A DNA stretch of 60,039 bases, the filler included, from an uncultured virus (IMG/VR IMGVR_UViG_2502082094_000001) (lineage: Duplodnaviria > Heunggongvirae > Uroviricota > Caudoviricetes). It is 8 parts of one record of this genome, joined end to end, with 100 filler letters (N's around TTAATTAATTAA, not from the genome) between each part and the next. Parts side by side here need not be neighbours in the genome. Positions count along the whole stretch, not along the records: positions 51,266 to 54,032 come from IMGVR_UViG_2502082094_000001; 7 more parts are not named here. The stretch is one strand, 5' to 3'. The notes under the pieces were generated by a model. It had not been told where the DNA came from. It worked only from the letters and a program-made list of their open reading frames with translations, and ran no database searches. The position numbers were made by a program, and so were the translations under genes. Below, in pieces: positions 12,570 through 59,140 of the stretch; positions within the stretch are counted from its first letter, which is position 1; each line of letters begins with the position of its first letter.

Positions 12570-12669
12570 NNNNNNNNNNNNNNNNNNNNNNNNNNNNNNN
12601 NNNNNNNNNNNNNTTAATTAATTAANNNNNNNNNNNNNNNNNNNNNNNNNNNNNNNNNNNNNNNNNNNN
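12570..12669. other. Artificial contig spacer (same type at 16569, 30646, 35371, 39653, 51166 and 54033)
   Basis: 100-nt N run with a central TTAATTAATTAA all-frame stop linker. Confidence 0.95.
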
Positions 12670-14513
12670 TTGGTAGAATCAGTCACAGTGAGTATTACAC
12701 TGTTAGAGCCAAACTCTTCAAATGTGTGTGATACCTGTTCTCCAGTAGCTGTAGTTCCATCGCCAAAGTCCCAATCATAGGACTCTATATCTTCATTGGG
12801 ATCAGTACTTGCTGAAGCATCAAATGTTATCTCATCTCCCACGGTCGGCTGCTCAGGCTCATACGTGAATACAGCATTTGGAGGCTTTTGCTCCTCTAAT
12901 ATCTTGGCTTTCCGAACAGCACTGTCTGCATTTATCTGGCCATGACCAAATCTGGCATCATGCCCCGTTACCGTGTTTACTTGAGTCATTCTAGGCAGCT
13001 TGGCCGTCGACTCTAATATACCCTCTATAGTTTCTCTTCTAGCATTACCCGTAATTGATGCTATAAGAGCGGCTACCCCAGCAGTCAGAGGCGCGGCTTC
13101 AGATGTACCTGCCCCAGATCCGCCATCGTTTGTACTCAAGTCTTTCTCCTTGTTCCCATACGGCACTACAGATGGAAGCAAGCATCCCACATCCGGCTTC
13201 GGGTTCTGTGTTACTGGACCACAAGTACCATAGCCATGACTTGAATATGTCTGAGCACTCTTGCCCTCGTATCTAAATGCAGCTACAGCAATTGAGGACG
13301 GCTTTGAGTTTGCCCCTGATATTGCGTTTGTAAGACCACTAAGTCTGTGGCCACAATACTGAGCCTCATTGCCAGCTGCGTATACTGCCTGATGGTCACT
13401 TCTACTACTCAACGCTTCTGAAATGTTTGCTTGTATAGATGAGCACAGGTTTTGTGATCTAGCAGAGCACAGAGGTATACCATATGAGTGGTTTGATATT
13501 ACAGGTTTATCTAAAGTCTTAACCCACCCAGCAAGCCAATCCCATGCCTCCTCTGTGTATACCATTGCTCCAGATGAATCGGTAAGCCGGGCTAGTAACA
13601 GATCAGCATTCTTTGCGACCCCGCTGTATTTTACTTTTTGGCCACCTTCGCCATCTGATGTTTCTTCAGCATTGCCCGCAGCGGAATAAGCAGTCATAGT
13701 ACCGTGCCCTTCTTCAGGTTTCGAGTATGCAGTGTCAACATCATCCCCGTGGAAGGTATCTATGACTCTATTACTCTGTACGAATTGTTTAGAGAACGAG
13801 GTATCAAATATGGCTACTACTGCGTTTGAACCAGTACTAACTTGCCACGCCTTTTCACCTTTTATCTTCTTTACAGCATCACCAACGTCAGGTTTACTAC
13901 TATCATCATCCAAAAAGTCAAGTGTAGAGCTTGCTACATCAAGTCCTAGGTTTCTCGGACCTGGAGTATTAACCGCGTATGACACATCAGCTCTCACTAC
14001 GCCGCGTAGATCTTCTATAGCATCAGTCACAGGGTTAGTTATGCTTCCAAGAAGATCATTTCTAATACCTGCCTCAAGCTCCCGTGAACTCGAATCTTGG
14101 AAGTTAAACAGTCCTGGCCTAAAGCTATCAATGAGACTTACTGTATCACCGTTTTGTGCTCTTTGTTCTAGTTTGTCTAGCTTTTGGAGCGTTCTATCCG
14201 ATATTTCTTGGCCAAAAGATCTAATATTTTCTATTACTGTCGAAAGTCTCTCAGCCTCAGCAACTATGACGCCCGTGTTAGACAGTACTCTGGTTTTGAA
14301 ATCAAGCTCGTTTAGCTTGTCTTGAACCTCCGACATTAGAGTATCCTCCACGGGGAGGTTGTCGATAAGTTTATCTGTTATATCATCTGCACTGTTTGCT
14401 ATATCCGATATTGAAGTGCCGTCACCTACTTCTACTACTATGCGCTGAGGTATGTACTTAAACTGTGGGCCTCCAGCGTTTCTCTTTGCCAAACTGCCTC
14501 TTACAGTAACCAT
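12670..14513 (-). CDS. S8 subtilisin-like protease with PKD domain(s), 3' partial
   Basis: VAIFDTS (Asp), GHGTMTA (His), AAGNE (oxyanion Asn), GTSEAAP (Ser); PKD motif YDWDFGDG. Confidence 0.9.
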
Positions 14514-16951: not shown

Positions 16952-19063
16952 TTACAAGGCTGCTCCTTCGTTCAGTGAACCAGATAAATCAAGATCATCA
17001 TTCATTAAGAACCCTTCTGACGCATCGTATGCCAAAGTACTACTATTTTGAGGCGTATTAGACCACTCTTCATTCTGGAAGTCTACAAACCCAATATTAA
17101 TTGCACCTCTTGCGCTATCGCTATTACTTGGATCATCAAAGTCAATCCCATTCCCGTCTAGATCAAGCCGAGAGTTTGGATTTGCCCAATCGTCAAGCGA
17201 GCGGTTTTGTGTGTTTAGATTAGTAACGTGTCCTCTTCCATCAAGATTAATGTCGTCTATTACAGTAGCACCACCTGTACTTACATTCCCCTGGTTACTT
17301 GTGTTAGCGTGGTTTATTGTAGTAGAGGATCCAAGGCTTACTCCGCCTCCACCTGTTAAGTCTGTGCCTGTTGAAACAGTAACGCTACTATTTTGTAGGC
17401 GACCCTGCGGTATATATGCTTCACTCTCATCCCATATGACTGCCCCACTGCCACCAGAATTAGATACTAAGTCTGAATCAAGCTCAAATGAACCAGACAC
17501 ACCTATATTCACTGAACTGCCAAGAGATACAGTCCCTCCATTAAGACCATTTTGACCATTAATTGTTACATCAGTATTAGTCAAGCTTATACTTACTGCT
17601 GAGCCTCCCAAACTAAAGTCTCCACCACCACTTATGCCTGTTCCAGCACTCAGGCTCACGGTATCACTTTCTAGCGCACTTAGAGGGATATAACCATTCC
17701 CACTATCCCATATAGTATTAGAACCATCTACTAGATCGTTTGAGTTAACATTTATATTCTCTAGAAGCCTGAACTCCTGGTTTTGTATACCACCACTCCC
17801 GTCAGCCTCAGCGAATATTTTTGCTATTCCTGAATCATTCACAGCAAACGAGTATGACATCTCGTCTCCTAAACCAGATGCAGAAGACACGTTAAAGTCT
17901 ACTAGCTGTTCTACTCCAGAGTCATCAGGATATGTAATATCTTCACCGCTCCGTATCCCGAAGTTTAGCAAGCGGTTGTTATGAAGATCTATTTCGACTG
18001 GTGTTGACGTAGCATCAAGACCTACTTGCTCATTACCAGATGGATCTTGTATACTTATATCACCAGTTATAATATCATCTACTTGGTTAGTGTCTCCCTC
18101 AAGTGCAAAGCTACCTTTTATCTCTCCTACAGCGTTCTGTATACCTCCAGTGCCATCGGTTTCTGCTCTGACTACAAATATAGACTCTCCACCTATATCG
18201 AATGTAAACTCTTGTCTAACTCCTGCTGATACAGTATCATCAACTGGTATGTTGGCTAGGGTCTGAGCTCCTGCATTAGTCGGATACAATACTGATCTCG
18301 TATTTTGAAGCGCTATATCTCTATCGCCAAAGCCTATAGCAGAAGCAAGAGATACTGTAGTCCCCTGTCCGATTGCTATTGAGCCTGTCCCCTGGGCTAC
18401 TGCCCCATTACCAAGTGCGGTAGCGTTATCAGCAGTAGCCTCACCATTAACACCCACTACGGTAGCTCCAACACCTGTAACGTTTACCCCTACTCCCACT
18501 GAAGTAGAGTCACTTGTGTCTACAGTCACACCACGTCCTACGACTGTGGTGTTCTCTCCTAGGGCTTCAGATGCTTGGCCAAATGCTGAAGCATTGTCTT
18601 CTACAGCCCTAGTAGCCTTACCAACTACAGTTGACTGGTTTCCATTTGCTGTAGCATCTTCACCAATTGCTACTGTATCGTCACCTCTTGCTTCTGATTT
18701 ACGTCCAACTAGTACTACGTTTTCTCCATTAAAGCTGCTTCCAGCGTCATACCCTATTACGGTATTCCAATTAGACGGAGCTGTAGTCTCAGTGCCTATA
18801 GCAGTAGCGTCTTGACCTGTAGCCTCTGCTCCTTTGCCATATGCGACAGTTCTACCATTGTTTGCTATTGCTCCTGTTCCAGTTGCTGTAGAGTCTGTCC
18901 CTGTAGCAACAACATTTCTACCAATACCTACAGTGTCTGGTAAAGTATCTGCATTGAGACCTATACGCACAGGATCTTGAATTAGATCTCCAACTAGCTC
19001 TATGTCACCTCTAATTACTCTCCCACCGCCAAAGTAGGCAGTAGGTTGTTCCATTAGTCCCAT
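16952..19063 (-). CDS. Long fibre/adhesin with YadA-head repeats and Gly-rich shaft repeats
   Basis: ATAIG-type repeats followed by AGTGISGGG.VSLG repeats; likely start MGLMEQP. Confidence 0.8.
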   Translation of the reverse strand: MGLMEQPTAYFGGGRVIRGDIELVGDLIQDPVRIGLNADTLPDTVGIGRNVVATGTDSTATGTGAIANNGRTVAYGKGAEATGQDATAIGTETTAPSNWNTVIGYDAGSSFNGENVVLVGRKSEARGDDTVAIGEDATANGNQSTVVGKATRAVEDNASAFGQASEALGENTTVVGRGVTVDTSDSTSVGVGVNVTGVGATVVGVNGEATADNATALGNGAVAQGTGSIAIGQGTTVSLASAIGFGDRDIALQNTRSVLYPTNAGAQTLANIPVDDTVSAGVRQEFTFDIGGESIFVVRAETDGTGGIQNAVGEIKGSFALEGDTNQVDDIITGDISIQDPSGNEQVGLDATSTPVEIDLHNNRLLNFGIRSGEDITYPDDSGVEQLVDFNVSSASGLGDEMSYSFAVNDSGIAKIFAEADGSGGIQNQEFRLLENINVNSNDLVDGSNTIWDSGNGYIPLSALESDTVSLSAGTGISGGGDFSLGGSAVSISLTNTDVTINGQNGLNGGTVSLGSSVNIGVSGSFELDSDLVSNSGGSGAVIWDESEAYIPQGRLQNSSVTVSTGTDLTGGGGVSLGSSTTINHANTSNQGNVSTGGATVIDDINLDGRGHVTNLNTQNRSLDDWANPNSRLDLDGNGIDFDDPSNSDSARGAINIGFVDFQNEEWSNTPQNSSTLAYDASEGFLMNDDLDLSGSLNEGAAL

Positions 19064-19099
19064 AACATTGTATACAAACGGGAGTGGGATAAATGGTTT

Positions 19100-19340
19100 G
19101 GTGCCTCGCGCGCGTGCGCGTAGCATGTAGCTACTGTAGAGAGTAACTACTGTAGAAAGTAGTAGCAAATTTTTAGAGCTCTACTGCTATAGCTTAGCGA
19201 CATGCTAAGATTAAAAGGAGGCAGAGGCATATGAGCGCCGCCAGGCGCTCATCGCCTCCTTTTAATCTTAGTATAAAGCTTTATAAAGTTACTAACGCGC
19301 GTGCGTGTGCGCGCGTGTGTGCCCACGCGGGCGTATAGGG
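19100..19340. promoter_or_regulatory. Origin-like intergenic region: 18-bp perfect inverted repeat flanked by alternating purine-pyrimidine tracts
   Basis: CTAAGATTAAAAGGAGGC...GCCTCCTTTTAATCTTAG enclosing ATGAGCGCC/GGCGCTCAT; CTACTGTAGA twice; CGCGCGTGCG tracts; lies at a strand switch. Confidence 0.45.
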
Positions 19341-28736: not shown

Positions 28737-31431
28737 TTAGTCTGATATCTCCATGTAATCGTCTAATCTCATAGGTCCATCGTCATCATCTGAAGCATCA
28801 ATTTCTACTGTTTCGTTAACCTCACCATCTGAGTCCCAGTTTCGTAACATGTTTTGTGCTTTGGACAGTTTCTTTCTAGCCTCGTGCTCTTCTCGCTCCC
28901 AAGTTTCGTCAAACTCTTGTTGTTCTTTCTTATCTGTACTCCCACCTCCGTCCGTGGGGTCTTCTGATTCATCTATTGCTGTTACAGTTTGAGAGTCTCC
29001 ACCATCATTCTTGAACGCATATTCTTCTAAGCGTGGCTGTCTATTTCCAGACTCGATTTCACTCCACGTCCAGTCTGTGCCTGCTAGTATGCGTTCAGTC
29101 GGTGACTTTATTTGAGTGTTAATGTATTTAGTCCAATCCCAGTCTATTACATCTGGTATGTCTTTCCAATTCATCCAGCAACACGGCTGAGTCTTAGACC
29201 TGTCTCGATCTGGCATGGGGTATTCTGCTGTACCGTCGTCTCCGGGGAGTATACGATTAACGTATGCCATTTTAGGCTTGTCTCCCGGTTGTATACCAGC
29301 ATCAAAGTGTTTGTTTGAATATCTGCTACCCTTAACTGCGGTAGTATCAGTTTCATACTGGTCGAAGTTTTTGGTTACGCTTGCGGGTATACCAAAGTCG
29401 TCAGGGTCAAACTCCAAGTTTTTAAGCTTCTCGATTGTATTACTAAGGTCTTCATGTACGTCTTGTAGATCTCCGTCACGCAGTATGTGATTAAACAACC
29501 GCTCCATAAATTCCTTCGCCACCTTTGAATAGTCTGAGCGTTTGTACTCAAAGCCTACAATATCCAGATCATCTTTTACTTTGCCCTCTTTCCACCCTAT
29601 CTGACCGGCGTACCGTTTCTTTTTGCCTGCTTGGAAGAAGCTTTCGTATAGCTTTTCAAACTCGATTTGGAAGAAATGCTCATCAGCATTTAGCTCTCGC
29701 AAGGCGAACTCATCATACCTGTTGTTTATTCTGCGCTCCATCTCGAAGCCAATGACTAGAACAGCAAACCATTTATTGAACTCCGAGTCTGACATTTCAC
29801 CTCGTTTGTCTTCTACTCTGGACCTAAACTCATGAACGCTGTCAACTCCATGCTCATCAAGCACATGGTTTACTTTCTGCTGATCTTGTATTATGCTTTG
29901 GTCTATCTCGTCTACCTGTATCATTACAGAGTCTGTATCGCCGTATACAGATTGATAGCCCATGTCTTCTACAACCTCTTCAGTAAATTTTATGACTTCA
30001 CGGCCTACAGCCGTTACAGCAGCTCCGACTTCTCGATCTTGCAGACGGAAGCGGTCCCAGCCCATTACTCCGTATAGAGTATTCATAACGACCTTCACCG
30101 CAGTTTGTTTGCGGTCGTAGATTGCGTATTGCTCTGAGTCAGGTGGGTATTGATCTCGTAGATCTTTGTACTGTTGCCGCTCCTCAAGCATTTCGTCAAT
30201 AATTTCTACGACTACTGCGTCCTCGTCGTTATTAAAGCTAATCCCGTTTGGAGCAACAAGTTCACCATCTGGGTCCTTTGTCTCAGGACCAGCATTGATG
30301 GTCTTCATTGACATGGGATATAGAGACTTAAGGTCCAGTACTACAACGTCGTCCTTTACGCCTGTGATTGGGTCAAATACTTTCGCGCCTTCAAACTCTT
30401 CAGTTTCTACGTTTCCAGCACTAGGTACTGCCCACGTACCATTGACTGCGCGGAGTACCTTAATATCAACGGCCTTGCTAGCGTCAACAACTTCTGCTAG
30501 TCTGCCACCGACATAGTTTGCTATCTCCTCATAAAACTTGATTATGTCTTGTTTTTCTTCGAGTTCTACAGTGAGTTTAACATCCTTGAAGTTGTAATCC
30601 ACAAGCTTTTGTGGGTCTTCTTTCCAAAGCACATGTAGATCTCGANNNNNNNNNNNNNNNNNNNNNNNNNNNNNNNNNNNNNNNNNNNNTTAATTAATTA
30701 ANNNNNNNNNNNNNNNNNNNNNNNNNNNNNNNNNNNNNNNNNNNNATTGCGTCAAAATCTCGTTTAATCACGTAATTCGCAAACGAACGAAGCATTCTGG
30801 CTTCGTCGGTGAACACCTTTACTTCTGCTGTCTCATGGTGTACATCTGGAAGCTCCGGGTGGTATAGCCAGACTATATAATCTTCTTTGTAGTTATCGTA
30901 TGCTGTTATAGCTGTTACTTCACGTTGTGCTTTCTCTTGGTCTGGGAAGCCTTCTGAGTCATCAACCTCAATGTCAGCGAAGCACACACGGCTACGCGCA
31001 CTGAAATCAGAGTGTTCTATATTGTCGAATTTAATTTCTGTAGGCTCAGGGGTAGCATGTTGCTCTGGTATTCTTATAGCCCCTTCTATTCCGTTATCTA
31101 TCATTACTCGGTTGGGCCAGAGTATGTCTGCTTCGTGGTGAGTGTACCCACTCCTAACCTTAGGCACATCGGCAGGTATTCTAGTAACCACTTTTACCAT
31201 GTGGTCGCCCTGTATATTTTCGTAACCCTTCTCACATCTAACCACTATGTCCTGGTTCTTTATATCAGAGTTAAACTCCTCAAACGGAACATAGAAGTAA
31301 GGCTGTTCTTCGGTGTTTGTGAGGTGTACTCTAGTACCTCCGGCTGTTCTGCCAAGCAAGTGTATTACTCCGTTTGGTCCATTCTCATACTCAACAGTGT
31401 AATCTCTCTTTTTAAGATCTACATCAATCAT
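28737..31431 (-). CDS. polB: Family B DNA polymerase (interrupted by assembly spacer 30646-30745)
   Basis: ExoI FADIEV; DLKSLYPMSM; KVVMNTLYG; YGDTDS; KKRYAG; PIP-like QPRLEEY and an acidic tail. Confidence 0.95.
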
Positions 31432-34075: not shown

Positions 34076-34118
34076 AGCTCGCCTTTGGAGTCGAACCAAA
34101 GAAATACCCTTGCGAGTT
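34076..34118 (-). ncRNA. Minimal tRNA-like element
   Basis: ACTCGC-AAGGGTATTT-CTTTGG-TTCGACT-CCAAAG-GCGAGC-T; fills most of the intergenic gap. Confidence 0.75.
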
Positions 34119-42006: not shown

Positions 42007-42503
42007 TCTATTGTTCTTATTTTTACTCTGCTTATTTGCGTATCTCTTATACCCACGCCCGACATTATTTCTTCTTGGAGTCGTTTCTTTCTGTCTCTGG
42101 GTATGGTGTCCCAGTAACCTTTAGTCTTGTATAAGGTTATATGCGGGCTATTTGGGTAGTTAATACTTGTTTTAGCATGTCTATCCAGTTGATCTATCAT
42201 GTGTTCTAACTCATCATGGAAGCCATGCTCTATGTCTAGCTGTACTACATACGGCTTATGTATATTCTCGTATACTGAAATTCTGTTTACTTGTATTTTT
42301 CTATTTCTGAATCTGTGGTTGTCTATTATATTCCTAACTCTGTCCATCCTGCCGTCCTTCACCGTGAAGCCCGGCACTAAAGTCATATGGGGTTTCTTTT
42401 TCTTGTAGAACTCTTCTGCTCCTGTAACCACCCAGAGGTAGTCTCTTAGTTGCTTGAGCTGTAGTTCGTTAGTTAATCTCCCCGAGACATATACTCGGTC
42501 CAT
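42003..42503 (-). CDS. 2H phosphoesterase (2'-5' RNA ligase / cyclic phosphodiesterase family)
   Basis: Two HxT motifs: PHMTL and PHITL. Confidence 0.8.
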   Translation of the reverse strand: MDRVYVSGRLTNELQLKQLRDYLWVVTGAEEFYKKKKPHMTLVPGFTVKDGRMDRVRNIIDNHRFRNRKIQVNRISVYENIHKPYVVQLDIEHGFHDELEHMIDQLDRHAKTSINYPNSPHITLYKTKGYWDTIPRDRKKRLQEEIMSGVGIRDTQISRVKIRTIE

Positions 42504-42561
42504 TTACTAATACCTTGTACACATCTTACGTTTTCAGGGTTCATAAGTGATTCGGTGTACT

Positions 42562-43776
42562 CTACCGATCTGAGAAGCTGAATGAGCCGTTTGTGCTGTC
42601 TTTTACAGTGTTACCATCGAAGTACTCAGCTGCGTTTTCGATAGTGCGCTCTCTGTAATGTTGTCCCTCCTCACCCCACTTGCTCATCCCACTAGCCCAC
42701 ATTATGTCTGCTATGACTGATTTATCAAACTCGTGTTTCAGGAGCTTTAGCACAAACGCATACTCAAGTTCTGATCTTGAGTCATATCCATCAGCATCAC
42801 CGTTCCAGTATTGTCTAAATGCGTTGTCCGTCTTAATCAGATGGTTTACTCTCGCCCACGTATCATCGGTTAACTCTGATGGAGTAGTGTCAACAGACTC
42901 CATATCAACACCAGTACAACCATTAGACGTGCTTTCTCCGCTTTGTGTGTCCAACTCGTCTCTGATTTCATCTGGTGTTTTATCAATATCAGACTGAGTT
43001 ATCACCCCTGCGTTTTCTTGGTTAGGTTGGTGGATAATACCACACAGTCTCCCAGTTTGGGACTTAATACCTCGTGTACCCGGTACTTTCATAACCCGAG
43101 CAGGGTCACTAACATCGTCTTGATCGAAGTTAATATGCTCAGGAGCTTGTGATTCTATTATGGTTGTGTACTTGCTATTCATCGCCTTTTGAGTCAAGTA
43201 CTTACCAAGCAGATGTTGCTTGTTGTATAGCATGTCTTCACTACACTCAAAGTCCACATTGAAGTGTAGATGTATGCCATTCTCAGACATTACTACAAGG
43301 GGCCACACTCCATATTGCTCGTTCATGTACTTTACTTCAGCAAGCGCATACTGATAAGCCCACCATACCTCTTCTTTAGTGGACCCACCGTATGACTGCT
43401 TAGCAAGCTCAATGTCAAAGGACAGCTTTTTAATGGTGTCTATGTGTTCTGCTGCCCCACGCCCCGTCCGTGGAGTTTCACTTAGTGTATTAACACCTGC
43501 GTACACATGGTATCTCCACAGATCTGAATGTGTTTCACAGAACTCTCGGAACTCGTTGAAGGTTCTAGCGTGTACCCACTTTTGCTCTCCTGTATTCGCG
43601 TTAGCCTTTTTCTTATTTGGCACAGGGAAAGCACAAGTCTGTACAAAGCCATTTTGGTCGCTATACATCCAGCGATAGAACCGTTCGATAGCATCTTTTG
43701 AGTATGACGGAGCTGACTCCGACTTACTCATTTGCTGTATGAATGTTTGTTTATCAAGCGGGTCTATCATTGTCAC
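42562..43776 (-). CDS. AEP-superfamily primase-polymerase with helical C-terminal domain
   Basis: YAGVN, SFDIE, SENGIHLH, DPARVMKVPGT; DSRSE...KW....Y.ERTI.NA. Confidence 0.85.
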   Translation of the reverse strand: MTMIDPLDKQTFIQQMSKSESAPSYSKDAIERFYRWMYSDQNGFVQTCAFPVPNKKKANANTGEQKWVHARTFNEFREFCETHSDLWRYHVYAGVNTLSETPRTGRGAAEHIDTIKKLSFDIELAKQSYGGSTKEEVWWAYQYALAEVKYMNEQYGVWPLVVMSENGIHLHFNVDFECSEDMLYNKQHLLGKYLTQKAMNSKYTTIIESQAPEHINFDQDDVSDPARVMKVPGTRGIKSQTGRLCGIIHQPNQENAGVITQSDIDKTPDEIRDELDTQSGESTSNGCTGVDMESVDTTPSELTDDTWARVNHLIKTDNAFRQYWNGDADGYDSRSELEYAFVLKLLKHEFDKSVIADIMWASGMSKWGEEGQHYRERTIENAAEYFDGNTVKDSTNGSFSFSDR

Positions 43777-45098
43777 GTAGGTCTCACCCTCCCTTCTCCG
43801 TTCATGGCTTGTACTGGAGTACTTTCTGATTCTATCTTCTCCATTTCGCTCAATATGGCTAAAGCTTGTTTGAGTTCTTTTTTACTTTTGTATGTTTCTA
43901 CCATTAATTCCTGTAACTCTGCGTATCCTCCATTATTATCTGCTATTTGGGATACGACCCGCTCTATCTCACGCAGATCGTTGTCTGCGTTTGTAGTTGA
44001 GTAGTCCTCAATAAACTTTAGTGTATGTTTGAACGACTTCATACACATAGACATTGCTTTATCTACGTGTTCTTGAGTTATGCGTCTAGAAACATACACG
44101 TCATGCTTATCATCGTAGCTCACAGCAGCGAAGCAAGCGGCTAGACGGTAAACCTTGTTCATCATACGGGTTTTGAACGGTCTAGCCTTACGTCTAACGT
44201 CAATTGTATAGCCATCTAGTATTTTATTCATCTTTGGACTAGGGTTAAGCGACACACCTTCCTCAAGATAGAAATACTCAAGATGGTTTTTAGCTGCTGC
44301 GTAGCTACTCTGACCCATACGGTACTGTTTTCCATGCTCCCACACGGACTCCTCGATGTACTTTAGTGTGTTTGCTAGTTTTTGTATGTCCTTATCAAGT
44401 TGCTTTGAAACTCGTTCATGTGAGTTAGGACTTCTCGGGATTTCGTTGTCCCGCATACGGTTTATCTCATCGTAGAAGTCTTCGCTCATAACTCGATAGA
44501 AGAACAGCGTCCGTGGGAGAAAGCCTTGCCGTATGAGTTCTAATTGCCCACTAGGTTCTGGGTCATATGTAGTACAGAATATGGACGTGTTAGACTCATA
44601 TTCAAGCTTTCCACCAGATAACGTTTTGGCCACTCTACCAGATGGGTCCATTGCCATGTTAAGCACTTCTAGTATATCCGATGAATGTGTTTGCTCGGCA
44701 GACTTTAGCAATGTTTGGGCTTCAGTCCAGCCCATAAACCCACTACCTGATAGCTCGCCTTCACGCTGTTCTCCATTTTGTCTAACTGTTCCCATTATGC
44801 CTGCTGTGCTAGCTGTACCTTCTTGTTCAAATGGTATATCAGCTTCCCTAGCTACTTTTTCAATCATACTGAATACGCTACCTTTGCCTGTGCCAGATGA
44901 TTGAATGATAAATGGATGAACTCTACAGCCAATCGGTTGTTTGTCTATCCGTAGATACACGTCTCTCAAGGCTTGGCCTACGAGAGACAATGCTCCCGAT
45001 ATATGTAGAGGGTCGTTGTTATACGACATATCCCTAGCATGACTCATGTATGTGGAGAAGAATTCATCTCCCCACAAACAATCATCTTTGCTTACCAT
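43773..45098 (-). CDS. Divergent MCM-like AAA+ helicase
   Basis: SSGTGKG Walker A, ASTAGIMG, WTEAQ at the Walker B position, LNMAMD, GFLPR Arg finger; coupled to the primase gene. Confidence 0.65.
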   Translation of the reverse strand: MVSKDDCLWGDEFFSTYMSHARDMSYNNDPLHISGALSLVGQALRDVYLRIDKQPIGCRVHPFIIQSSGTGKGSVFSMIEKVAREADIPFEQEGTASTAGIMGTVRQNGEQREGELSGSGFMGWTEAQTLLKSAEQTHSSDILEVLNMAMDPSGRVAKTLSGGKLEYESNTSIFCTTYDPEPSGQLELIRQGFLPRTLFFYRVMSEDFYDEINRMRDNEIPRSPNSHERVSKQLDKDIQKLANTLKYIEESVWEHGKQYRMGQSSYAAAKNHLEYFYLEEGVSLNPSPKMNKILDGYTIDVRRKARPFKTRMMNKVYRLAACFAAVSYDDKHDVYVSRRITQEHVDKAMSMCMKSFKHTLKFIEDYSTTNADNDLREIERVVSQIADNNGGYAELQELMVETYKSKKELKQALAILSEMEKIESESTPVQAMNGEGRVRPT

Positions 45099-45582
45099 TT
45101 ATCCGGCTTGCTCTAGGTCTTCATTTTGGGGATCTGGTGTACTATATGCTTCATACGAGCTTAGGGTTCTCTGCATTGAAGTACCCGACTTGGTAGATAT
45201 AAACAGCATACGGTGCGATTGTCTTTGCGAGTGGATCTGGCTTTTGGTTTTTTGAGTCATTATTTTGGCATTGGATTATTCAACAATCTGTTCAAGTTCG
45301 TCTACGCTTTCAGGTTCCATTTGCTCTATTTGCTCCTCCACAAGTTGTTTCATATCTTTGTCGTCTGCTATTGATATGAGCTTGAGTTTCTTGTGATACT
45401 TTTCGTCAATATACACCTGTTTTCCAGACATTCTTGTATTGTGGTCTCAACCCGAGTACTATTACTGGGTTTATGATAATAATAGGGACGGGTGTATATA
45501 AAACCCCCGATATACGGCAGTCTGAGCCGCTTTACCGCAAGAATAGAGCCGCCCGAACCTCAACAATTATTTGTACCGTACT

Positions 45583-46095
45583 TTAGTCTTCTATCGTGAA
45601 GTCGTCCTCAGTCTTTATATCTAGGTCGTCCCTATCCACATCCTCTCCCAGATCCGTCACTTCAGACTCTACCTCTTCCACATCTGTAGATGGGTCTATT
45701 CCATCTAACACTTGTTGTAGCTCTCTTTCTAATTCTTCTTGACTTTTACCTTGTACTTCAGTGGCTTCTAGTACCCCTACACAGTATTTACGGGCTCTTT
45801 CAACTGATGCTTCAACAAGTGGATCTGGCATATCCTCAAACTTCAATACCCCTAAACTACTAGCGTCTAGCCCTAACTCACTCAATATGCTAGCGGTCCC
45901 AAAACGCTGTCCGGCTCTGCTCATCACACACTCATCTACTCTGGCTTCATCGGCAGAAAATAACCTACCATCTTGGTGGAACCATTCTATATTTCTGAAT
46001 GGTCTGGGGCTTCCCATGATGCCTCTACTGACTAAGTAAAAGCTCTTTTCATCTGGATCATACACAATCTTTTCTTTTGTGAACGGGCGTATCAT
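45583..46095 (-). CDS. Hypothetical protein
   Basis: Acidic 170-aa ORF. Confidence 0.65.
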   Translation of the reverse strand: MIRPFTKEKIVYDPDEKSFYLVSRGIMGSPRPFRNIEWFHQDGRLFSADEARVDECVMSRAGQRFGTASILSELGLDASSLGVLKFEDMPDPLVEASVERARKYCVGVLEATEVQGKSQEELERELQQVLDGIDPSTDVEEVESEVTDLGEDVDRDDLDIKTEDDFTIED

Positions 46096-46234
46096 GCTAA
46101 GCCATCTGTAAACCTAGCATAAAAACCCATTGAATATCTTGGCACTATGAATGGCTGCTGTTATTATGCCAAGGTTCAATCTTGTACTATTTCCTACTAA
46201 ACGGCTTTATTTTTATTGTAGTGTTAATGTGTTA

Positions 46235-46603
46235 TCAGTCGTCTCCTAGTTTATTAGATATTGAGATGGCTTTCTTTTCGCCAATAGTACCAAAGAGCTT
46301 TATTAACCCTTCTTTACTCACATGGCCTCCTTCAATAAGCTTAGCTACGCTTTCTGCCCACTCCTCATGCGTATCTTTGTTCCCAGCTGATTTTCCTGCT
46401 TCATATGCTTGCTTCCACACAAACTCAGTAGAAGGGTTTTCTGACAAGACTTCCAAGTCCTTGTGAAAGCGGTTCATCGTAGCACCAAGTTCGCGATACA
46501 CGATTCTAGCGGTTCGCCCCCCTTGTTCATAGCCAACAACTACACCTTTCGTATTAGTCTCTTTGATTTTCACTAGCGCACCGATTGGGGTCTTATCAAC
46601 CAT
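46235..46603 (-). CDS. Hypothetical protein with SH3/KOW-like N-terminus
   Basis: IGALVKIK....GVVVG; likely start MVDKTP. Confidence 0.55.
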   Translation of the reverse strand: MVDKTPIGALVKIKETNTKGVVVGYEQGGRTARIVYRELGATMNRFHKDLEVLSENPSTEFVWKQAYEAGKSAGNKDTHEEWAESVAKLIEGGHVSKEGLIKLFGTIGEKKAISISNKLGDD

Positions 46604-46622
46604 TATTATCACTTTATCTGAT

Positions 46623-46781
46623 TTAACTGCTATTATACCAAGATATAGTTTCACAGTCATCCGTGGTACACTTATATTGTACGTGTATCATATGCTCTCC
46701 AACTTTCTCACAACAGGGGCAGACATTATCTGGTCTTTCGTCCTGATCGTCTGGATCTGACTTAAAATCCTCTAGCCCCAT
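46623..46781 (-). CDS. 52-aa Zn-finger protein starting MGLEDF (not in ORF track)
   Basis: MGLEDFKSDPDDQDERPDNVCPCCEKVGEH...YKCTTDDC...YNSS*. Confidence 0.7.
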   Translation of the reverse strand: MGLEDFKSDPDDQDERPDNVCPCCEKVGEHMIHVQYKCTTDDCETISWYNSS

Positions 46782-46790
46782 GTATTGTGC

Positions 46791-47237
46791 TTACGACTTG
46801 AACGACATTAGCCCACCGCTCGGTTCGTCATCTTCGTCATCTGTATTTCTTGTTTTATCAGTATCTGGAATACCAGTAATATCTTCGTTGTTTTGAGTAC
46901 TGGGCTTGTCAGGTGCTTGATTCATTGCTACCTGTCTAAACTGTGGAAACCAATCAGACTCTCGGAAGTCTAGTTGGTCTACTTTCACCATAGCCTCGTA
47001 TGAAGTGGCAACATAGTTGCACTCCATACAAGCACATATGACGTTAAGCGCATCGTCTTCATTGGCTTCGGCTATTCGTAGGTATTCCACAGAATGTAGC
47101 CTGATAGTGGCTGGGATGCTTACTTCTTCTGTGTCAACGCTGTTTGCTACGTGGATACAATTATTATTTGAAGGGCTGTTGCTAGACCTTTTAGATCTAG
47201 AACGTGGGCCTTCTGTTTTGAATGATTCTAGTCCCAT
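46791..47237 (-). CDS. Hypothetical protein, MGLESF start and GGLMSF end
   Basis: Contains CMEC and a motif at both termini. Confidence 0.7.
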   Translation of the reverse strand: MGLESFKTEGPRSRSKRSSNSPSNNNCIHVANSVDTEEVSIPATIRLHSVEYLRIAEANEDDALNVICACMECNYVATSYEAMVKVDQLDFRESDWFPQFRQVAMNQAPDKPSTQNNEDITGIPDTDKTRNTDDEDDEPSGGLMSFKS

Positions 47238-47401
47238 TTCGGGCTCAAGTCGCTGTCATGGTTGTCTGGCGCTATTACTTCTCCACAGTTCATACATTGT
47301 GAAAGACTGTACACTTGGTACTGAATATTTGGATTCATACAGCAAGAGCCAGTTGGAAGCTCTAACTGCTTTGTATCGTCTTCTGTCATGCTCTACACCG
47401 A

Positions 47402-48121
47402 TTAACCTCCATCAGATGTATTATTTGTGTTTGTATCGGTAGTATTTGTCGCTTGCTCTTGTGATTCTAGGACTACTCCCGTATCGTTTTCACTTGAATC
47501 GGTTATGTTAGTTGTCTGGTCATCGAGCTGCTGCTGGACTCTAAATGTCGGAGTAATGGAGACGGTAAAGCCTCCGTCGCCCGATATGCCAGTGTAGTCG
47601 AAGTACACGCTCATTGAGAGTGTTCTTGTGGCCTCTTCAAACGCAGGTAACTCTGGAGTGCCGGGTTGAGTCGAGACTAGAGTAAGTGGAAGTGAGCTGT
47701 TAAGCTCTTGGAGCGTGCTTGGAGCATCTGAATGAATCTGCCCTTCATAACTCACATCCTCCAAGATTGTATGCTCTATGATCTCACTTTTGCTTGCCCC
47801 ACCTGCGTCACTAACACTTACTTCTAGACTCGTAAGTTTGAGGTTGGTGGCGTTCAGAGTCCCAGTATTAAGGATCTCCCACGACACTTCGTGTGTGACT
47901 GGTTCTCCTTGATTATCAGAGTAGCTTTCAGCAGGCTCGAACGTATCACTAGGAGTCTGGATCTCCAGACCTATTGATCCTGCTGTAAAGTCTATACCCG
48001 ATACTTGCGTATCAGATAGTGCAGCGTATGTCCCTACACTACCTAATGCGCCAGCCCCTCCCACACCAGCTATTCCTATCAATACCTTTCTTCTCGAAAG
48101 GCCTGAATTCTTGTCTGTCAT
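47402..48121 (-). CDS. SipW-dependent signal peptide protein (TasA/CalY-like)
   Basis: LSRRKVL...GTYAALSDT...FTAGSI, ILNTGTL. Confidence 0.8.
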   Translation of the reverse strand: MTDKNSGLSRRKVLIGIAGVGGAGALGSVGTYAALSDTQVSGIDFTAGSIGLEIQTPSDTFEPAESYSDNQGEPVTHEVSWEILNTGTLNATNLKLTSLEVSVSDAGGASKSEIIEHTILEDVSYEGQIHSDAPSTLQELNSSLPLTLVSTQPGTPELPAFEEATRTLSMSVYFDYTGISGDGGFTVSITPTFRVQQQLDDQTTNITDSSENDTGVVLESQEQATNTTDTNTNNTSDGG

Positions 48122-48146
48122 TTGCTATCTGACGGCTCATCCGTCA

Positions 48147-48188
48147 AGCCCAGCAGGGGAGTCGAACCCCTGGAGCACCGATCTGGGT
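48147..48188 (-). ncRNA. Minimal tRNA-like element
   Basis: ACCCAG-ATCGGTGCTC-CAGGGG-TTCGACT-CCCCTG-CTGGGC-T, directly after the sipW stop codon and followed by a TGACGG/CCGTCA hairpin. Confidence 0.8.
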
Positions 48189-48189
48189 G

Positions 48190-48723
48190 TTACTCTTCTT
48201 CCTCGTTTTGGCTAGCCAGATACAACTGCCACATCCCATCCATCAGCAGGAGTGTAAACGGGAGGACAACTAACGCCATCCACCCAACAGTTGAATCTGC
48301 CATGTTAACTATGTACCCTAGTACTGGTATATGGAATAGTACAATCCCAACTACCTCTGCTCTTACCACTGGCTCAGGGTCTCTCACGTCGTTGTTATCC
48401 CCTTTTGTGATGAAGCGTACACTGTCTGTTATCTCCCCAGTTTTCTTCTCCACCACTCTGTGTGTAGTCGTCTGTCTAATGTCTCTAGCCTGGCTAAAGG
48501 TTATCACGTCACCTTCCTCTATCCGCTCGTCAACCTGACTAGTTGGAACATTATCGACGAACACTACTGAGCCGGTTGGGATTGCTGGTTCCATACTACC
48601 TGATAGCACTATGAACGAGTGGTCTGCTCCTACTATCCACGGGAACGCATGGACCACAAATAGTGCCAGTATACATAGGAGTACTGTGAACCCGAGGACT
48701 TTGATTACTCCTCGGACATTCAC
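48190..48723 (-). CDS. sipW: Signal peptidase I, SipW/Sec11 type
   Basis: VLSGSMEP (Ser), THRV (His), TKGDNN...DP. Confidence 0.9.
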   Translation of the reverse strand: MNVRGVIKVLGFTVLLCILALFVVHAFPWIVGADHSFIVLSGSMEPAIPTGSVVFVDNVPTSQVDERIEEGDVITFSQARDIRQTTTHRVVEKKTGEITDSVRFITKGDNNDVRDPEPVVRAEVVGIVLFHIPVLGYIVNMADSTVGWMALVVLPFTLLLMDGMWQLYLASQNEEEE

Positions 48724-48729
48724 ACTTGC

Positions 48730-49769
48730 TTATCCGCTGTCGTTGTTCTGCGGACTGTACGTGTTCACGAGCGTCGGGCCAGAGGCTGCTCTCTCCTGGC
48801 TGAAGGTGAAGCCGACCTCGACTGTCATCTCGTCACCCATGATCTCGTTACCCGTATCGAAGGGCATGTGCCAGTCGTAGCCGAAGTTAAGGGTCCCAGC
48901 CAGTTGGGAGCGCACTAGCTGGCTGAGTGTTGTCCGTAGTGTCTCCAGGTTTCAGCAAGCTGTCCAGCGAGCATGATGCAGCCCGGATCAACGGAGGTGT
49001 CTGCCGGAGCGTTGATCGTCTGGAAGTTAGACGTTTGGTTGGCGTTGTACGTCTGAGTGCTCTGGAAGGCCCGACCGACTACGTTAGCCAGAGTACGAGG
49101 CGCGAGGTACTCACTATCAATCCCAGCGGGCTGAGTGGAGAATGGAGTCCCTTCGGAGTTAGACCAGAACCCAGATGGAGCCGAGACGCCAGTAGCAGTA
49201 GTCTGCGTAGCAGGCGTGGAGCCGTCGTCGAAGAACTGGCTATCTGCGTTGTTGTCGTAGAACGGGATCAGGTAGATGTTCTCTGCCAACTCGCCATCCG
49301 TGTTGGTCTGAGACTGGTACTCGCCCTCTGACTCTGGGCCAGCGTTGGCTGCCGTCACTTCGGAGTCTGCCTCCACTTCAGGCTCGTAGTTCTTGGCATC
49401 AACATCTTCCGCGACGTTGAGACACGCTCCCACGAACGCTGGATTGTTCGTCACTTCGAGCGTGAAGTTGATCGTACCGTAATCTCCCGGCTTCACGTCG
49501 ATAAAGTTGACGGTTGCTCCTGCGCCCTCCCCATCCAGAGTGACCAGACTGGTGTCTCCAGTAAGGTCGTCTCCGTTGTATGTGAGGTTGGTGGAGATTG
49601 TACCGTCAATTGCTCCTGCCGTGAACGTAGCAGATTGACCTTCGGTGTCAGTTAGTTGTGCGACTGTTCCTAGCCCCCCGATACCGGCAGCGGCTCCAAT
49701 GGAGCCAATGCCAGCGAGAGCTTGCCGCCGTGACAGGTTTGAGAGCCTGCTAGAGCTGTCTTCGCTCAT
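48730..49769 (-). CDS. SipW-dependent TasA-like protein (apparent frameshifts near 48900-48950)
   Basis: LSRRQAL...GTVAQLTDTE...FTAG, DVKPGD.G, NNPA; the C-terminal FGYDWHMP...NEIMGD..GFTFSQ lies in another frame. Confidence 0.75.
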
Positions 49770-49810: not shown

Positions 49811-49853
49811 AGCTCCGCCGAAGAATCGAACTCCGGCCATACCAATCAGAGCT
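49811..49853 (-). ncRNA. Minimal tRNA-like element
   Basis: As 13-55; the allelic change turns a U-A pair into a U-G wobble, so pairing is kept. Confidence 0.75.
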
Positions 49854-52654: not shown

Positions 52655-52694
52655 TACCTGTCTTAGGAGTCGAACCTAAGTTCTCCAAACAGGC
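52655..52694 (-). ncRNA. Minimal tRNA-like element
   Basis: GCCTGT-TTGGAGAA-CTTAGG-TTCGACT-CCTAAG-ACAGGT-A. Confidence 0.8.
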
Positions 52695-52726
52695 CACATG
52701 TGTAACTAAGCATTACACACGTAAGA

Positions 52727-52801
52727 CGGACGTAAAGGGATTTGAACCCTTGATCTAGTGGTTAGAAGCCACTCGCCTTATCCGGGCTAGGCTATACGTC
52801 C
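52727..52801 (-). tRNA. tRNA-Arg(TCT)
   Basis: Full cloverleaf; anticodon arm AGTGG-CTTCTAA-CCACT; no encoded CCA. Confidence 0.9.
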
Positions 52802-52804
52802 AGA

Positions 52805-52877
52805 TGGGTGAACGAGGATTTGAACCTCGGCTCTCCGCCTTGTAAGGGCGGCGTCTTAACCGCTAGACTACTCACCC
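52805..52877 (-). tRNA. tRNA-Val(TAC)
   Basis: Full cloverleaf; anticodon arm CCGCC-CTTACAA-GGCGG. Confidence 0.9.
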
Positions 52878-53023
52878 TAGGGGAGTGTGGATAGTGGGTA
52901 CACTCGGACCCAGACAATCGTGTGACACTCTGACTACCACTACCAACGGTAGTTCGTGACTAGCCTGACCCAACTTGCCACAGTTGGGTTCTCGATATTT
53001 GTAACGCTCCTCTTGGGGAGCAG

Positions 53024-53096
53024 TGGGCCTGCTCGGATTTGAACCGAGAGTCGACTCGTTATGAGCGAGTTGCCTTGACCGTTTGGCCACAGGCCC
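53024..53096 (-). tRNA. tRNA with CAT anticodon (probably Ile2, otherwise elongator Met)
   Basis: Cloverleaf; ACTCG-CTCATAA-CGAGT; GGGCC acceptor start typical of Ile tRNAs. Confidence 0.8.
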
Positions 53097-53152: not shown

Positions 53153-53431
53153 TTACGAGCGCAGTCGCTCGACAAGCTCCTGAAGCGGCTCCTCGTTGTC
53201 GTCCTGCTCCATCTGAGCAACTGCGACGAGGAACTCACCCACGAGGTTGTGTCTGTCAGTACCGAGCTGCTGCTGGATGAAGCGGGCAGCATCGAACTGC
53301 CGCTTGGCTTCCTCCGGGTCATCGAACTCTTTGGAGTCCGGGTGCTCCGGGTTCTCGAACTGGTAGTAGGTCGTTCGCGTCTTGCCGCCACTCGTGCTGT
53401 TGTTGTCTCCGCTGAATGAATCGACGCCCAT
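53153..53431 (-). CDS. Small highly expressed protein starting MGVDSF
   Basis: Strong C-ending codon bias; ACAATG start context. Confidence 0.7.
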   Translation of the reverse strand: MGVDSFSGDNNSTSGGKTRTTYYQFENPEHPDSKEFDDPEEAKRQFDAARFIQQQLGTDRHNLVGEFLVAVAQMEQDDNEEPLQELVERLRS

Positions 53432-53530
53432 TGTTCTAGTTTGAGTTGACCACAGTTGATTTATACAGTAGCTGTGTCTGACCACTGGACTCACTTGTTT
53501 TATAAAAAGGAGCGGTAGTCATACTCCATA

Positions 53531-53602
53531 TAACAGAAGAGGGAATTGAACCCCTGACACTCTGACCAAGTGCTCCTACCCGGTTGACAACCGGCTTCTG
53601 TT
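53531..53602 (-). ncRNA. Non-canonical tRNA-like cloverleaf
   Basis: AACAGAAG/CTTCTGTT closing stem, CCGGTT-GTC-AACCGG, GCACT-TGGTCAG-AGTGT, GGG-TTCAATT-CCC T-arm. Confidence 0.5.
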
Positions 53603-53677
53603 TGTAGAACTTACGAGTTACTTCTTTGATTTGGCACAGGGCTTCATCAATGGAAGCCCATAAGCAGCTCTCGCGCC

Positions 53678-53816
53678 TGGAGTTTTGGCTGAGGGGCAAC
53701 TCAGTAAGTTCTGTACATCTCATTGTTGCCTTGGACTTTGGCCCAAGCTCGCTCCGATACGAGTTCAGAGTCATATTTGGGTCTGGTTTAGCGATCTTTA
53801 GCTCAGCCTGACTCCA
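53678..53816 (-). ncRNA. Candidate ~140-nt multibranch ncRNA
   Basis: Closing helices TGGAGT/ACTCCA and GGCTGAG/CTCAGCC enclose several hairpins. Confidence 0.5.
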
Positions 53817-53817
53817 A

Positions 53818-53863
53818 TGCTCACTCAGGTCTCGAACCTGAAACGGGCCGAATCTACATGAGC
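53818..53863 (-). ncRNA. Minimal tRNA-like element with longer linker
   Basis: GCTCAT-(16 nt containing GG)-TCAGG-TTCGAGA-CCTGA-GTGAGC-A. Confidence 0.6.
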
Positions 53864-53865
53864 TG

Positions 53866-54027
53866 TTAGTCATTGTCTTCGTCCCCACAATGAGCTTGAT
53901 CTTCTTCGTAAGCGTCCATTAGATGGACTAGCGCTTCGTCATTAGTCATGGAGTTACTCTCCGCTTTTATCCTCTTGAACCTCAAGAACTGAGATTGGTT
54001 TAGATCACAGCGGAGATTTTTTGCCAT
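53866..54027 (-). CDS. Small RHH-like protein (not in ORF track)
   Basis: MAKNLRCDLNQSQFLRFKRIKAE...TNDEALVHLMDAYEE...*. Confidence 0.5.
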   Translation of the reverse strand: MAKNLRCDLNQSQFLRFKRIKAESNSMTNDEALVHLMDAYEEDQAHCGDEDND

Positions 54028-54132
54028 ATTGTNNNNNNNNNNNNNNNNNNNNNNNNNNNNNNNNNNNNNNNNNNNNTTAATTAATTAANNNNNNNNNNNN
54101 NNNNNNNNNNNNNNNNNNNNNNNNNNNNNNNN

Positions 54133-54366: not shown

Positions 54367-54408
54367 TGCCCACGCGGAGGAGTCGAACCTCCGCTACTCC
54401 AAGTGGGC
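54367..54408 (-). ncRNA. Minimal tRNA-like element
   Basis: GCCCAC-TTGGAGTA-GCGGAGG-TTCGACT-CCTCCGC-GTGGGC-A (6+7 bp). Confidence 0.8.
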
Positions 54409-56126: not shown

Positions 56127-56573
56127 TTAACTAGTAGTTTCTGTTTTAAGGTCTATTCTCACGCCATTCTCGAACTCTTTACGTTCTCCATTAACCTCTA
56201 CATACCACTGTTTATCTAGTTGAAACACATCAACTGTTGATGGGAGTATCTTGTTCAGGGTTCTCTTTGTGAGTTTGGTTTTGTGATCTGCGTGTCTAAG
56301 CTTGAACTCTGTGTTGTTATACCGAATTGCTATAAGATTTTGGTGTAGATAGAAGTGTCTGTTACTGTTGTAGTCTATAACTGTTATTCTGTACGCTCCC
56401 TTATCTGTAATATTGATACAACCACACTCGTAATCTCTGCCTGGTTGGTGATATGACTCTTCACGTACTACTGCTCCTTTGTCGTATAGAGTTTCAAAGT
56501 CTTTTGGGTTGTAATCACTCATCTCTAAGCGGTAGGCCGCTACCCTAAGCCTGATTGGAGAATTGAACTCCAA
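56127..56573 (-). CDS. Hypothetical viral protein
   Basis: FYLHQNLIA...TKLTKRTLN...VFQLDKQWYV, a phage-like pattern. Confidence 0.6.
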   Translation of the reverse strand: MEFNSPIRLRVAAYRLEMSDYNPKDFETLYDKGAVVREESYHQPGRDYECGCINITDKGAYRITVIDYNSNRHFYLHQNLIAIRYNNTEFKLRHADHKTKLTKRTLNKILPSTVDVFQLDKQWYVEVNGERKEFENGVRIDLKTETTS

Positions 56574-56664
56574 ACTAAGACCACTTCAAGGCTGATAAAT
56601 CAAGAATATATAGGTCATACGTGTAGGTTTAAATAGCAACTATAGCTTTTAGGTATATTACTTT

Positions 56665-59099: not shown

Positions 59100-59140
59100 A
59101 GCCCCGTTAAGGAGTCGAACCTTAAAAATCCAAGCGGGGT
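59100..59140 (-). ncRNA. Minimal tRNA-like element
   Basis: ACCCCG-CTTGGATTT-TTAAGG-TTCGACT-CCTTAA-CGGGGC-T. Confidence 0.8.

Follow-up and report, generated by a model that had tools for sequence, protein, structure and literature searches.

A conserved RNA module with two tRNA-like elements and a lineage-variable, stem-closed middle in a putative virus of halophilic archaea

Within a stretch of 60,039 nucleotides (nt) from the record of an uncultured virus assigned to the Caudoviricetes (IMG/VR IMGVR_UViG_2502082094_000001), the whole of which is called the window here, 430 nt of the minus strand (53865-53432) are without an obvious gene and hold a fold of ~140 nt that an earlier, sequence-only reading had put forward as a discrete non-coding RNA bracketed by processing signals. 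This interval is a conserved RNA module of ~430 nt, which consists of a mini tRNA-like element (TLE1), a two-part helix closing a variable domain, a spacer, a second tRNA-like element (TLE2), and a hairpin-rich leader. The reading that we favor, and to which we give about an even chance of being right, is that the ~140-nt fold is no independent RNA gene but the middle of this module, closed by a stem and variable between lineages, and that host tRNA enzymes cut at the two tRNA-like elements.

Two tRNA-like elements and the helix between them

The gene immediately downstream of the module, which encodes an acidic protein of 92 amino acids (aa) (53153..53431, minus strand), was the anchor used to find relatives. 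Its product has 46 homologues (56-87 % identity, all metagenomic), and the scanning of metagenome contigs with an alignment of these yielded 29 loci, one of which (L002) is the window's own contig. A BLAST comparison of the 439-nt stretch with these loci gave two matching blocks, namely the first ~65 nt, including TLE1, and the last ~145 nt; the middle, including the 140-nt fold, had no match in the related loci. Collecting homologues was a check proposed along with the original fold, and it has been rewarding: TLE1, the closing helix, and TLE2 all covary.

TLE1 (53818..53863, minus strand) begins 2 nt past the stop codon of the upstream open reading frame (ORF). It is built from an acceptor stem of 6 base pairs (bp), a linker of 16 nt in which a GG is invariant, a T stem of 5 bp with the T loop TTCGAGA, and a discriminator A. 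The sequence-only reading had noticed a tRNA-like element at this place, and it is real and conserved in the relatives with compensatory changes: in an alignment of 13 sequences (A2), 97.9 % of the cells are paired and 7 of the 11 pairs show such a change, none of 500 shuffles was as good, and sliding the partner by 1-3 columns reduced the pairing to 21-43 %. The first acceptor pair alone occurs among the relatives as G-C, A-U, U-A, and G-U. The model of this element (R1) scores 66.9 bits at 53818-53863, and there is a single strong copy per related locus.

TLE2 (53531..53602, minus strand) folds as a cloverleaf. Its acceptor stem has 8 bp and its T stem 4 bp, the T loop reads TTCAATT, and there are two further arms and, again, a discriminator A. 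Its alignment (A3, nine sequences) is paired in 99 % of cells, with 12 of 22 pairs compensatory and 0 of 500 shuffles as good. The arm at the anticodon position has loops of 3-15 nt among the relatives, hence no anticodon loop, and for this reason TLE2 is unable to decode. Its model (R2) scores 85.2 bits at 53531-53602 and still gives 16-20 bits to the true tRNA-Arg(TCT) genes of the arrays, with which the T arm and the D-region align; therefore, to judge from sequence, TLE2 is clearly tRNA-derived and most like tRNA-Arg(TCT).

Neither element is detected by ARAGORN at default settings, and ARAGORN with and without introns finds nothing beyond the true tRNAs, and no tmRNA. An Rfam scan had also been proposed for the fold, and at curated thresholds it leaves the elements unrecognized: the tRNA family (RF00005) does not match TLE1, tRNA-Sec (RF01852) matches weakly at 53603-53531 (18.8 bits against a threshold of 47), and the search of 53350-53950 with E up to 10 returned three chance-level matches only, with none for 5S rRNA or other families. 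On 15 related loci, only tRNAs pass the Rfam threshold. Being under the curated threshold and without a 7-nt anticodon loop, TLE1 and TLE2 do not belong to the tRNAs proper. What they have is the anatomy of t-elements: an acceptor-like stem coaxial with a T arm (6 + 5 bp in TLE1 and 8 + 4 bp in TLE2, both covarying), and a T loop of the tRNA type (TTCRANN closed by G-C), TTCGAGA in the one and TTCAATT in the other. The stems suit an RNA of the minus strand because of their invariant G-U pairs. The idea that the two are halves of one intron-containing or split tRNA was rejected, since each has a complete acceptor stem and T arm.

Between these elements lies the stem-closed variable domain (53676..53817, minus strand). 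Its closing helix consists, in the window, of an outer part, TTGGAGT/ACTCCAG (53817-53811 with 53683-53677), and an inner part, GGCTGAG/CTCAGCC (53808-53802 with 53693-53687). The pairings listed by the sequence-only reading are all present in the minus strand where it had placed them, and 53817-53676 folded alone adopts the structure that it described, with both helices and four lineage-specific internal hairpins (minimum free energy -44.4 kcal/mol, z = -2.9, 2 of 200 shuffles equal). In every lineage examined, the two-part helix begins 1-3 nt past the TLE1 discriminator and has an outer part of 4-7 bp, an internal loop, and an inner part of 4-10 bp; what it encloses extends from a hairpin of ~35 nt (L016, L017, L018, L029) up to ~215 nt (L020). 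RNAalifold, given a six-lineage alignment, returned this helix as the sole consensus (12 pairs, 7 of them compensatory), the interior being without any, and duplex searches found it in all seven of the long-insert loci tested. In a partner-swap control, L007, L009, and L028 pair far better with their own partner than with a swapped one; on the window's own helix the control is non-discriminating (-21.7 against up to -21.1 kcal/mol). With a conserved helix and a variable interior, the fold first described is thus the filling that this lineage has given to a conserved stem. DNA contigs compared with the stretch show one population variant inside the fold, at 53703, in an unpaired stretch, and are uninformative on pairing. 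The internal loop of the closing helix was also considered as a K-turn, and this was rejected because its sequences, by eye, lack the G-A/A-G signature.

The spacer that follows (53603..53675, minus strand) is not conserved. It has a local hairpin, GGGCTTC/GAAGCCC, and holds most of what had been taken for a second acceptor-plus-arm fold (53676-53620). Complementary segments do occur there, with two G-U pairs in the six-pair stem, but the loop, CATTGAT, is not a T loop; moreover, this fold has no counterpart in the relatives, and the TLE1 model gives no match there even with its filters off and E up to 5. The 3' processing signal that it was thought to provide at ~53676 is likewise not conserved, and the conserved 3' element is TLE2, ~75 nt further downstream. 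Past TLE2 comes the structured leader of the 92-aa gene (53432..53530, minus strand), which is conserved in the BLAST blocks and whose pairings were assigned by eye: a hairpin GGAG...CTCC, a T-run/TTTATAAAA motif, and a hairpin CAGTGG-TCAGACACAG-CTACTG with a conserved loop. The loops of the leader hairpins also look complementary, by eye, to downstream sequence, in the window as well as in L007, L009, L011, L013, L020, and L028 (for example, AGCTTCT with AGAAGCT in L011, or CACAG with CTGTG), and pseudoknots around the TTTATAAAA motif are suggested.

The open frame over the module

The module is overlaid by an ORF of 145 aa from its ATG (ORF-X, 53436..53873, minus strand), the same that the sequence-only reading had counted as 150 aa from a GTG at 53888. 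ORF-X covers TLE1 and the fold as well as TLE2 and the leader; it begins in an overlap with the upstream stop, and its own stop falls 5 nt before the ATG of the 92-aa gene. That reading had dismissed the ORF as lacking the acidic composition of the credible genes. The composition is indeed not acidic (isoelectric point (pI) 9.4, D+E 8 %, compared with pI 4.4 for the 92-aa protein), but the frame is kept open in the relatives. Across 16 loci it contains 0-3 stops, compared with 3-14 for the two remaining forward frames and 2-16 for the reverse frames; the frame is therefore under selection to remain open. In the relatives, an in-frame ATG stands 7-31 nt before TLE1, where it overlaps the upstream stop or directly adjoins it, and the stop of the ORF lies anywhere from 16 nt upstream to 10 nt downstream of the 92-aa start. 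The spacing between the T arms of TLE1 and TLE2 equals 1 modulo 3 in six lineages, with lengths of 211-343 nt. Thus, open frame, start, and stop are all features of a protein gene that the relatives keep, with one lineage in which the frame is split.

Purifying selection on the amino acids, and the codon-position composition of the neighboring genes, are features that ORF-X does not have. Between L011 and L013, its substitutions fall 17/11/15 by codon position, with a ratio of nonsynonymous to synonymous rates (dN/dS) of 0.80, compared with 0/0/10 and 0.00 for the 92-aa gene; between L018 and L024 the figures are 5/9/12 and 0.39 for ORF-X and 0/0/14 and 0.02 for the 92-aa gene. The GC content by codon position is flat in ORF-X (0.46/0.48/0.48) versus 0.66/0.34/0.77 in the 92-aa gene. 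In 11 lineages the ORF-X product has a pI of 6.8-10.5 and 5-9 % acidic residues, and the 92-aa protein a pI of 4.1-4.4 (6.8 in one) and mostly 22-25 %. The four nearest homologues of the ORF-X protein (46-50 % identity, gene-caller predictions) are conserved only where they are encoded by TLE1, by either strand of the helix, by TLE2, or by the hairpins of the leader; their interior is unrelated. The residues encoded by TLE1 change radically (D to V, L to P, E to R, Q to G), yet the base pairs are kept; in L018 and L003, a different frame runs through TLE2, and the ORF-X frame is still open. No Pfam or PHROG family was found for ORF-X above threshold.

Apart from its openness, then, ORF-X looks non-coding. 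Conservation of the ORF with synonymous bias, rather than of base pairing, had been named in advance as one outcome that would speak against an RNA; the relatives do keep an open frame, but without synonymous bias, and it is the base pairing that is conserved. We infer that ribosomes traverse ORF-X and that the peptide itself is not selected. An ORF kept open without constraint at the protein level is a trap in two directions, because it misleads gene callers into annotating a protein and composition-only readers into dismissing the ORF.

The wider family and the genomic setting

TLE1 has many companions. The motif GGTTCRANYCC occurs nine times in the window, always on the minus strand, against 0.2 expected. 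A descriptor of the mini element, which requires at least 5 bp in the acceptor stem and 4 bp in the T stem, a TTCRANN loop, and a linker of 6-18 nt containing GG, also finds nine elements in the window, TLE1 and eight more. All are on the coding strand, and the mean over 100 shuffles is 0.12 (at most 2 in any one); in 15 non-redundant related loci it finds 12, again all on the coding strand, against 0.02. The eight further elements lie on the minus strand at 59102-59139, 56550-56590, 54368-54408, 52656-52694, 49811-49853, 48149-48187, 34078-34116, and 13-55. They have acceptor stems of 5-7 bp, linkers of 8-12 nt with the GG, T stems of 6-7 bp, and loops that read TTCGACT (five of them), TTCGATT, or TTCAATT.

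Their placement is as regular as their anatomy. Seven of the nine begin 0-15 nt past the stop codon of an ORF, which is the border position of a t-element, the next ORF begins 10-61 nt downstream in eight, and in six a hairpin starts at most 4 nt from the discriminator. The element at 52656-52694 stands 30 nt past a tRNA-Arg and 45 nt before a gene of 344 aa, and the hairpin GCGGGC-TTTA-GCCCGC follows it. The elements at 13-55 and 49811-49853 are near identical, together with the first bases downstream of each (one mismatch), and the contigs at the window start and at ~49.8 kb may be overlapping or duplicated pieces of the assembly. The whole genome of Halorubrum virus CGphi46 and the first 50 kb of Halogranum virus HGTV-1 (with 94 kb more beyond them) contain only a true tRNA-Ser matching the descriptor. 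A literature search, with most subscription journals outside its reach, returned no description of such elements in archaeal viruses.

The window itself is a chain of small contigs joined by N-linkers, with 20 N runs across 1140-56966. The joints are N20 gaps or N44-TTAATTAATTAA-N44 linkers (e.g., 54033-54132), and the adjacency of genes across them is no evidence of synteny. The GC content is ~51 % at 48-50 kb and 52-54 kb, and ~42 % elsewhere, over most of the window. The module sits on a 2.77-kb contig (51266-54032) with a GC content of ~51 %, the minus strand of which carries, in an operon-like row, an RHH-like ORF, the ~430-nt module, the 92-aa gene, tRNA-Met/Val/Arg, and the 344-aa gene. 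The first of these, an ORF of 53 aa (53866..54027, minus strand), owes its tentative name to a Pfam RHH_10 match under the cut-off (E = 0.11), and its homologues occupy the equivalent position in 9 of 11 lineages examined. The tRNA genes, found by ARAGORN and Rfam (52725..53096, minus strand), are tRNA-Met(CAT), tRNA-Val(TAC), and tRNA-Arg(TCT), and the 344-aa gene downstream of tRNA-Arg encodes a secreted protein.

The same arrangement recurs among the relatives, several of which are long contigs of up to ~93 kb. ARAGORN places tRNA genes after the 92-aa gene in 27 of the 29 loci, and the arrays vary in content (Met, Val, Arg, Pro, Leu, Ala, Asn, Gln, Ser, Ile, Thr). Directly after the 92-aa gene in L016 (2869-3018) and L017 (3307-3464), Rfam reports tRNAs of 150 and 158 nt that ARAGORN does not detect; they are likely forms of the array's leading tRNA with an intron. 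The 92-aa protein has no match in Pfam or PHROG, and its AlphaFold model, helical and with a mean predicted local distance difference test score (pLDDT) of 63, is too weak for fold searching.

As for its origin, the contig appears to belong to an uncultured tailed virus of halophilic archaea or to a virus-like element of such hosts. Homologues of the 344-aa protein are found in genomes of Halorubrum, Halorussus, and Haloferax, and a flanking protein in two relatives is phrog_5889, with CGphi46 (45 % identity) and HGTV-1 as best named matches. An identical stretch (100 % identity) occurs in a genome of 1.2 Mb (G001), with a scaffold gap at the matching upstream place, and a search of 70 genomes of the order of G001 with the 439-nt stretch matched near-identical G001 only. 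The contig was probably co-binned with a small halophile genome. The collections searched were otherwise silent: the phage collection gave zero matches by blastn, for the stretch, or by tblastn, the viral-contig collection contained no relatives of the 92-aa or 344-aa protein and none of the exact TLE motifs, and the species-genome collection held no relative of the 92-aa protein. HGTV-1 (L034) has a comparable layout at 42266-49328, where small annotated coding sequences alternate one by one with tRNA genes; by analogy, true tRNAs could be the punctuation marks there.

Two observations concern the rest of the window. Other contigs encode a family-B DNA polymerase, two YadA-head-repeat proteins, and a subtilase with PKD domains (Pfam; 28737-30632, 16952-19168, 1136-2584, 12618-14513). 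Small acidic proteins with minus-strand gene starts at 53431, 54305, 55041, and 55351, on different contigs, share the start motif MG(L/V)(D/E)xF, the family consensus for the N-terminus of the 92-aa protein being MxLDNFSGD; the motif may be a common N-terminal signal or a common gene-start context.

A proposed processing model, its rivals, and known systems

How might such a module work? Host RNase P and tRNase Z, which must already act on the adjacent tRNA array, would also cut at TLE1 and TLE2 and so divide the transcript into the mRNA of the upstream gene, a structured RNA (53817-53604, ~214 nt), and the mRNA of the 92-aa gene; the 3' end of the last would come from the RNase P cut at tRNA-Met. 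The helix at the new 5' end would shield the monophosphate end from 5' exonucleases. Protection by a helix at the 5' end is a general principle in bacterial mRNA decay, and we propose it as the reason why the position of the helix is conserved and its filling is free.

And why is the frame kept open? Perhaps ribosomes are handed from the upstream gene to the 92-aa gene through the structured spacer, that is, by translational coupling. Or, an untranslated spacer might be penalized by translation-dependent polarity or premature termination; translation-dependent polarity has been reported in archaea.

Several points count against cutting at the elements, or against parts of the structure on which it depends. 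The related lineages are not independent, and the shuffle controls consequently overstate significance. TLE1 stacks 11 bp (6 + 5), where 12 is canonical. The minimum-energy structure of the whole 439 nt replaces the closing helix by other pairings, and the stability of the mid-region compared with shuffles is inconsistent over 12 loci (z from -3.4 to +0.1). One lineage (L020, L022, L025) has the ORF-X frame split into two ORFs. The public runs that contain the stretch include no RNA run, and a Haloferax study of predicted tRNA-like elements (Biochimie 2012) reportedly saw selected ones uncleaved in vitro. Finally, cutting at the tRNA-like elements severs ORF-X from its start codon, so that cutting and translation compete; on one molecule they are in conflict and therefore need different molecules or times. 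Because of this conflict, the two could be joined in a translation-gated RNA-processing switch, in which ribosome traffic over ORF-X would decide on the folding and cutting of the elements, the release of the structured RNA, and the expression of the 92-aa gene; we offer this extension as a speculative one, which has more chances of being wrong than right by a good measure.

The interpretation from which the work started, a discrete RNA of ~140 nt with its own function that tRNase Z and RNase P excise at 53817 and ~53676, the GGCGCG...TGTGCC fold being its 3' signal, has become improbable. The isolated fold is stable (z = -2.9), a genuine tRNA-like element adjoins the 5' boundary, and the closing helix covaries; however, the interior is not conserved in sequence, cannot be aligned, varies from ~35 to 215 nt, and has no consensus structure, and the supposed 3' signal is neither conserved nor provided with a T loop, the conserved 3' element being TLE2. 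Could the frame, instead, be an ordinary fast-evolving gene for a basic, Ser/Thr-rich, probably disordered protein, with embedded RNA structures that only tune its translation or stability? We consider this unlikely, while granting it more than a token chance. The frame is open in ~10 lineages, with an ATG 7-31 nt before TLE1 and a stop adjoining the next start, and gene callers predict the ORF elsewhere (four homologues at 46-50 % identity). Set against this are a dN/dS of 0.4-0.8 with substitutions spread evenly over codon positions, and the lack of both the codon-position GC pattern and the acidic composition that the genome's other proteins show; the conserved peptide stretches fall exactly on RNA helices, radical residue changes preserve base pairs, the frame over TLE2 differs in L018 and L003, and no Pfam or PHROG family appears above threshold.

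Decay or integration could also leave tRNA-like pieces behind: they might be worn-out tRNA genes or attP sites for integration at a host tRNA, as in the HF1/HF2 group, and the fold a functionless spacer. TLE2 is tRNA-derived, most like tRNA-Arg(TCT), and an HF2 tRNA-like gene has been interpreted as attP (PMC8707807). Neither a pseudogene nor an attP site needs full pairing kept through many compensatory changes, however, and TLE1 retains its 5' acceptor strand. A search for the exact 21-mer of TLE1 (T arm plus acceptor) in 185,579 species genomes, which covered exact matches for TLE1 only and one genome per species, hit two unrelated bacteria and no archaeal tRNA gene. With nine elements per 60 kb, at gene ends and on the coding strand only, and with no integrase seen in the parts examined, this explanation is very improbable. 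In the remaining candidate, the mini elements would be 3'-end structures of the upstream mRNAs, either cut by tRNase Z only and left with a protective minihelix (perhaps CCA-tailed), or terminator-like. Seven of nine begin 0-15 nt past a stop codon and the coding-strand bias is strict, and for these elements the present data fit such a role and processing at both borders alike; but TLE2, far from any upstream stop, is left unexplained, as is the conserved helix right after the discriminator, and we regard the 3'-end role as doubtful.

Processing by host tRNA enzymes at both elements remains the reading that we favor, and it is best judged beside systems already described. Such t-elements are known from a single haloarchaeal rRNA operon and, in mRNAs, from plant mitochondria, and they already serve as a tool for the release of designer RNAs in Haloferax. 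In that organism, tRNase Z cuts the t-element that precedes 5S rRNA, and when an RNA is set between two such elements, RNase P and tRNase Z free it (PMC4326828). By analogy, release of the bracketed RNA by these two enzymes is plausible here. The window elements resemble t-elements in the acceptor-like stem stacked on a T arm, in the canonical T loop, and in their position at the borders of mature RNAs or genes. They differ in being a dispersed family (nine per 60 kb) in a virus-like genome, most of them directly past stop codons, and in that two of them bracket a variable domain before a viral tRNA array, inside a frame that is kept open.

Other systems come close in one respect or another. 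In animal mitochondria, tRNA-shaped structures between cistrons mark the cuts of RNase P and RNase Z, the so-called tRNA punctuation; by comparison, the marks in this archaeal virus genome are mostly non-decoding minihelices rather than functional tRNAs. The tRNA cluster of phage T4 includes the species 1 and 2 RNAs, of ~120-140 nt and unknown function, which lie beside the viral tRNAs and are matured with them. These T4 RNAs are defined and conserved, whereas the interior of the fold described here is hypervariable. Nearer in host range, haloviruses of the HF1/HF2 group have aberrant tRNA-like sequences, one read as attP and one, without an assigned function, upstream of the terminase gene (PMC7230728, PMC8707807). 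They too are conserved, non-decoding tRNA-likes in haloarchaeal tailed viruses; unlike them, the window elements are far more numerous, stand at gene ends, and have no match to a host tRNA gene, as judged from the exact 21-mer of TLE1, nor any in the phage collection.

If the favored reading is right, archaeal viruses can organize the maturation of their mRNAs by recruiting host RNase P and tRNase Z, and there would be a concrete and testable model for the expression of small genes set among viral tRNA genes. Natural t-elements that form a dispersed, covarying family at gene ends would be new. In terms of the known systems, the module would be best described as punctuation of the t-element type in an archaeal virus, overlaid by an unusual open frame.

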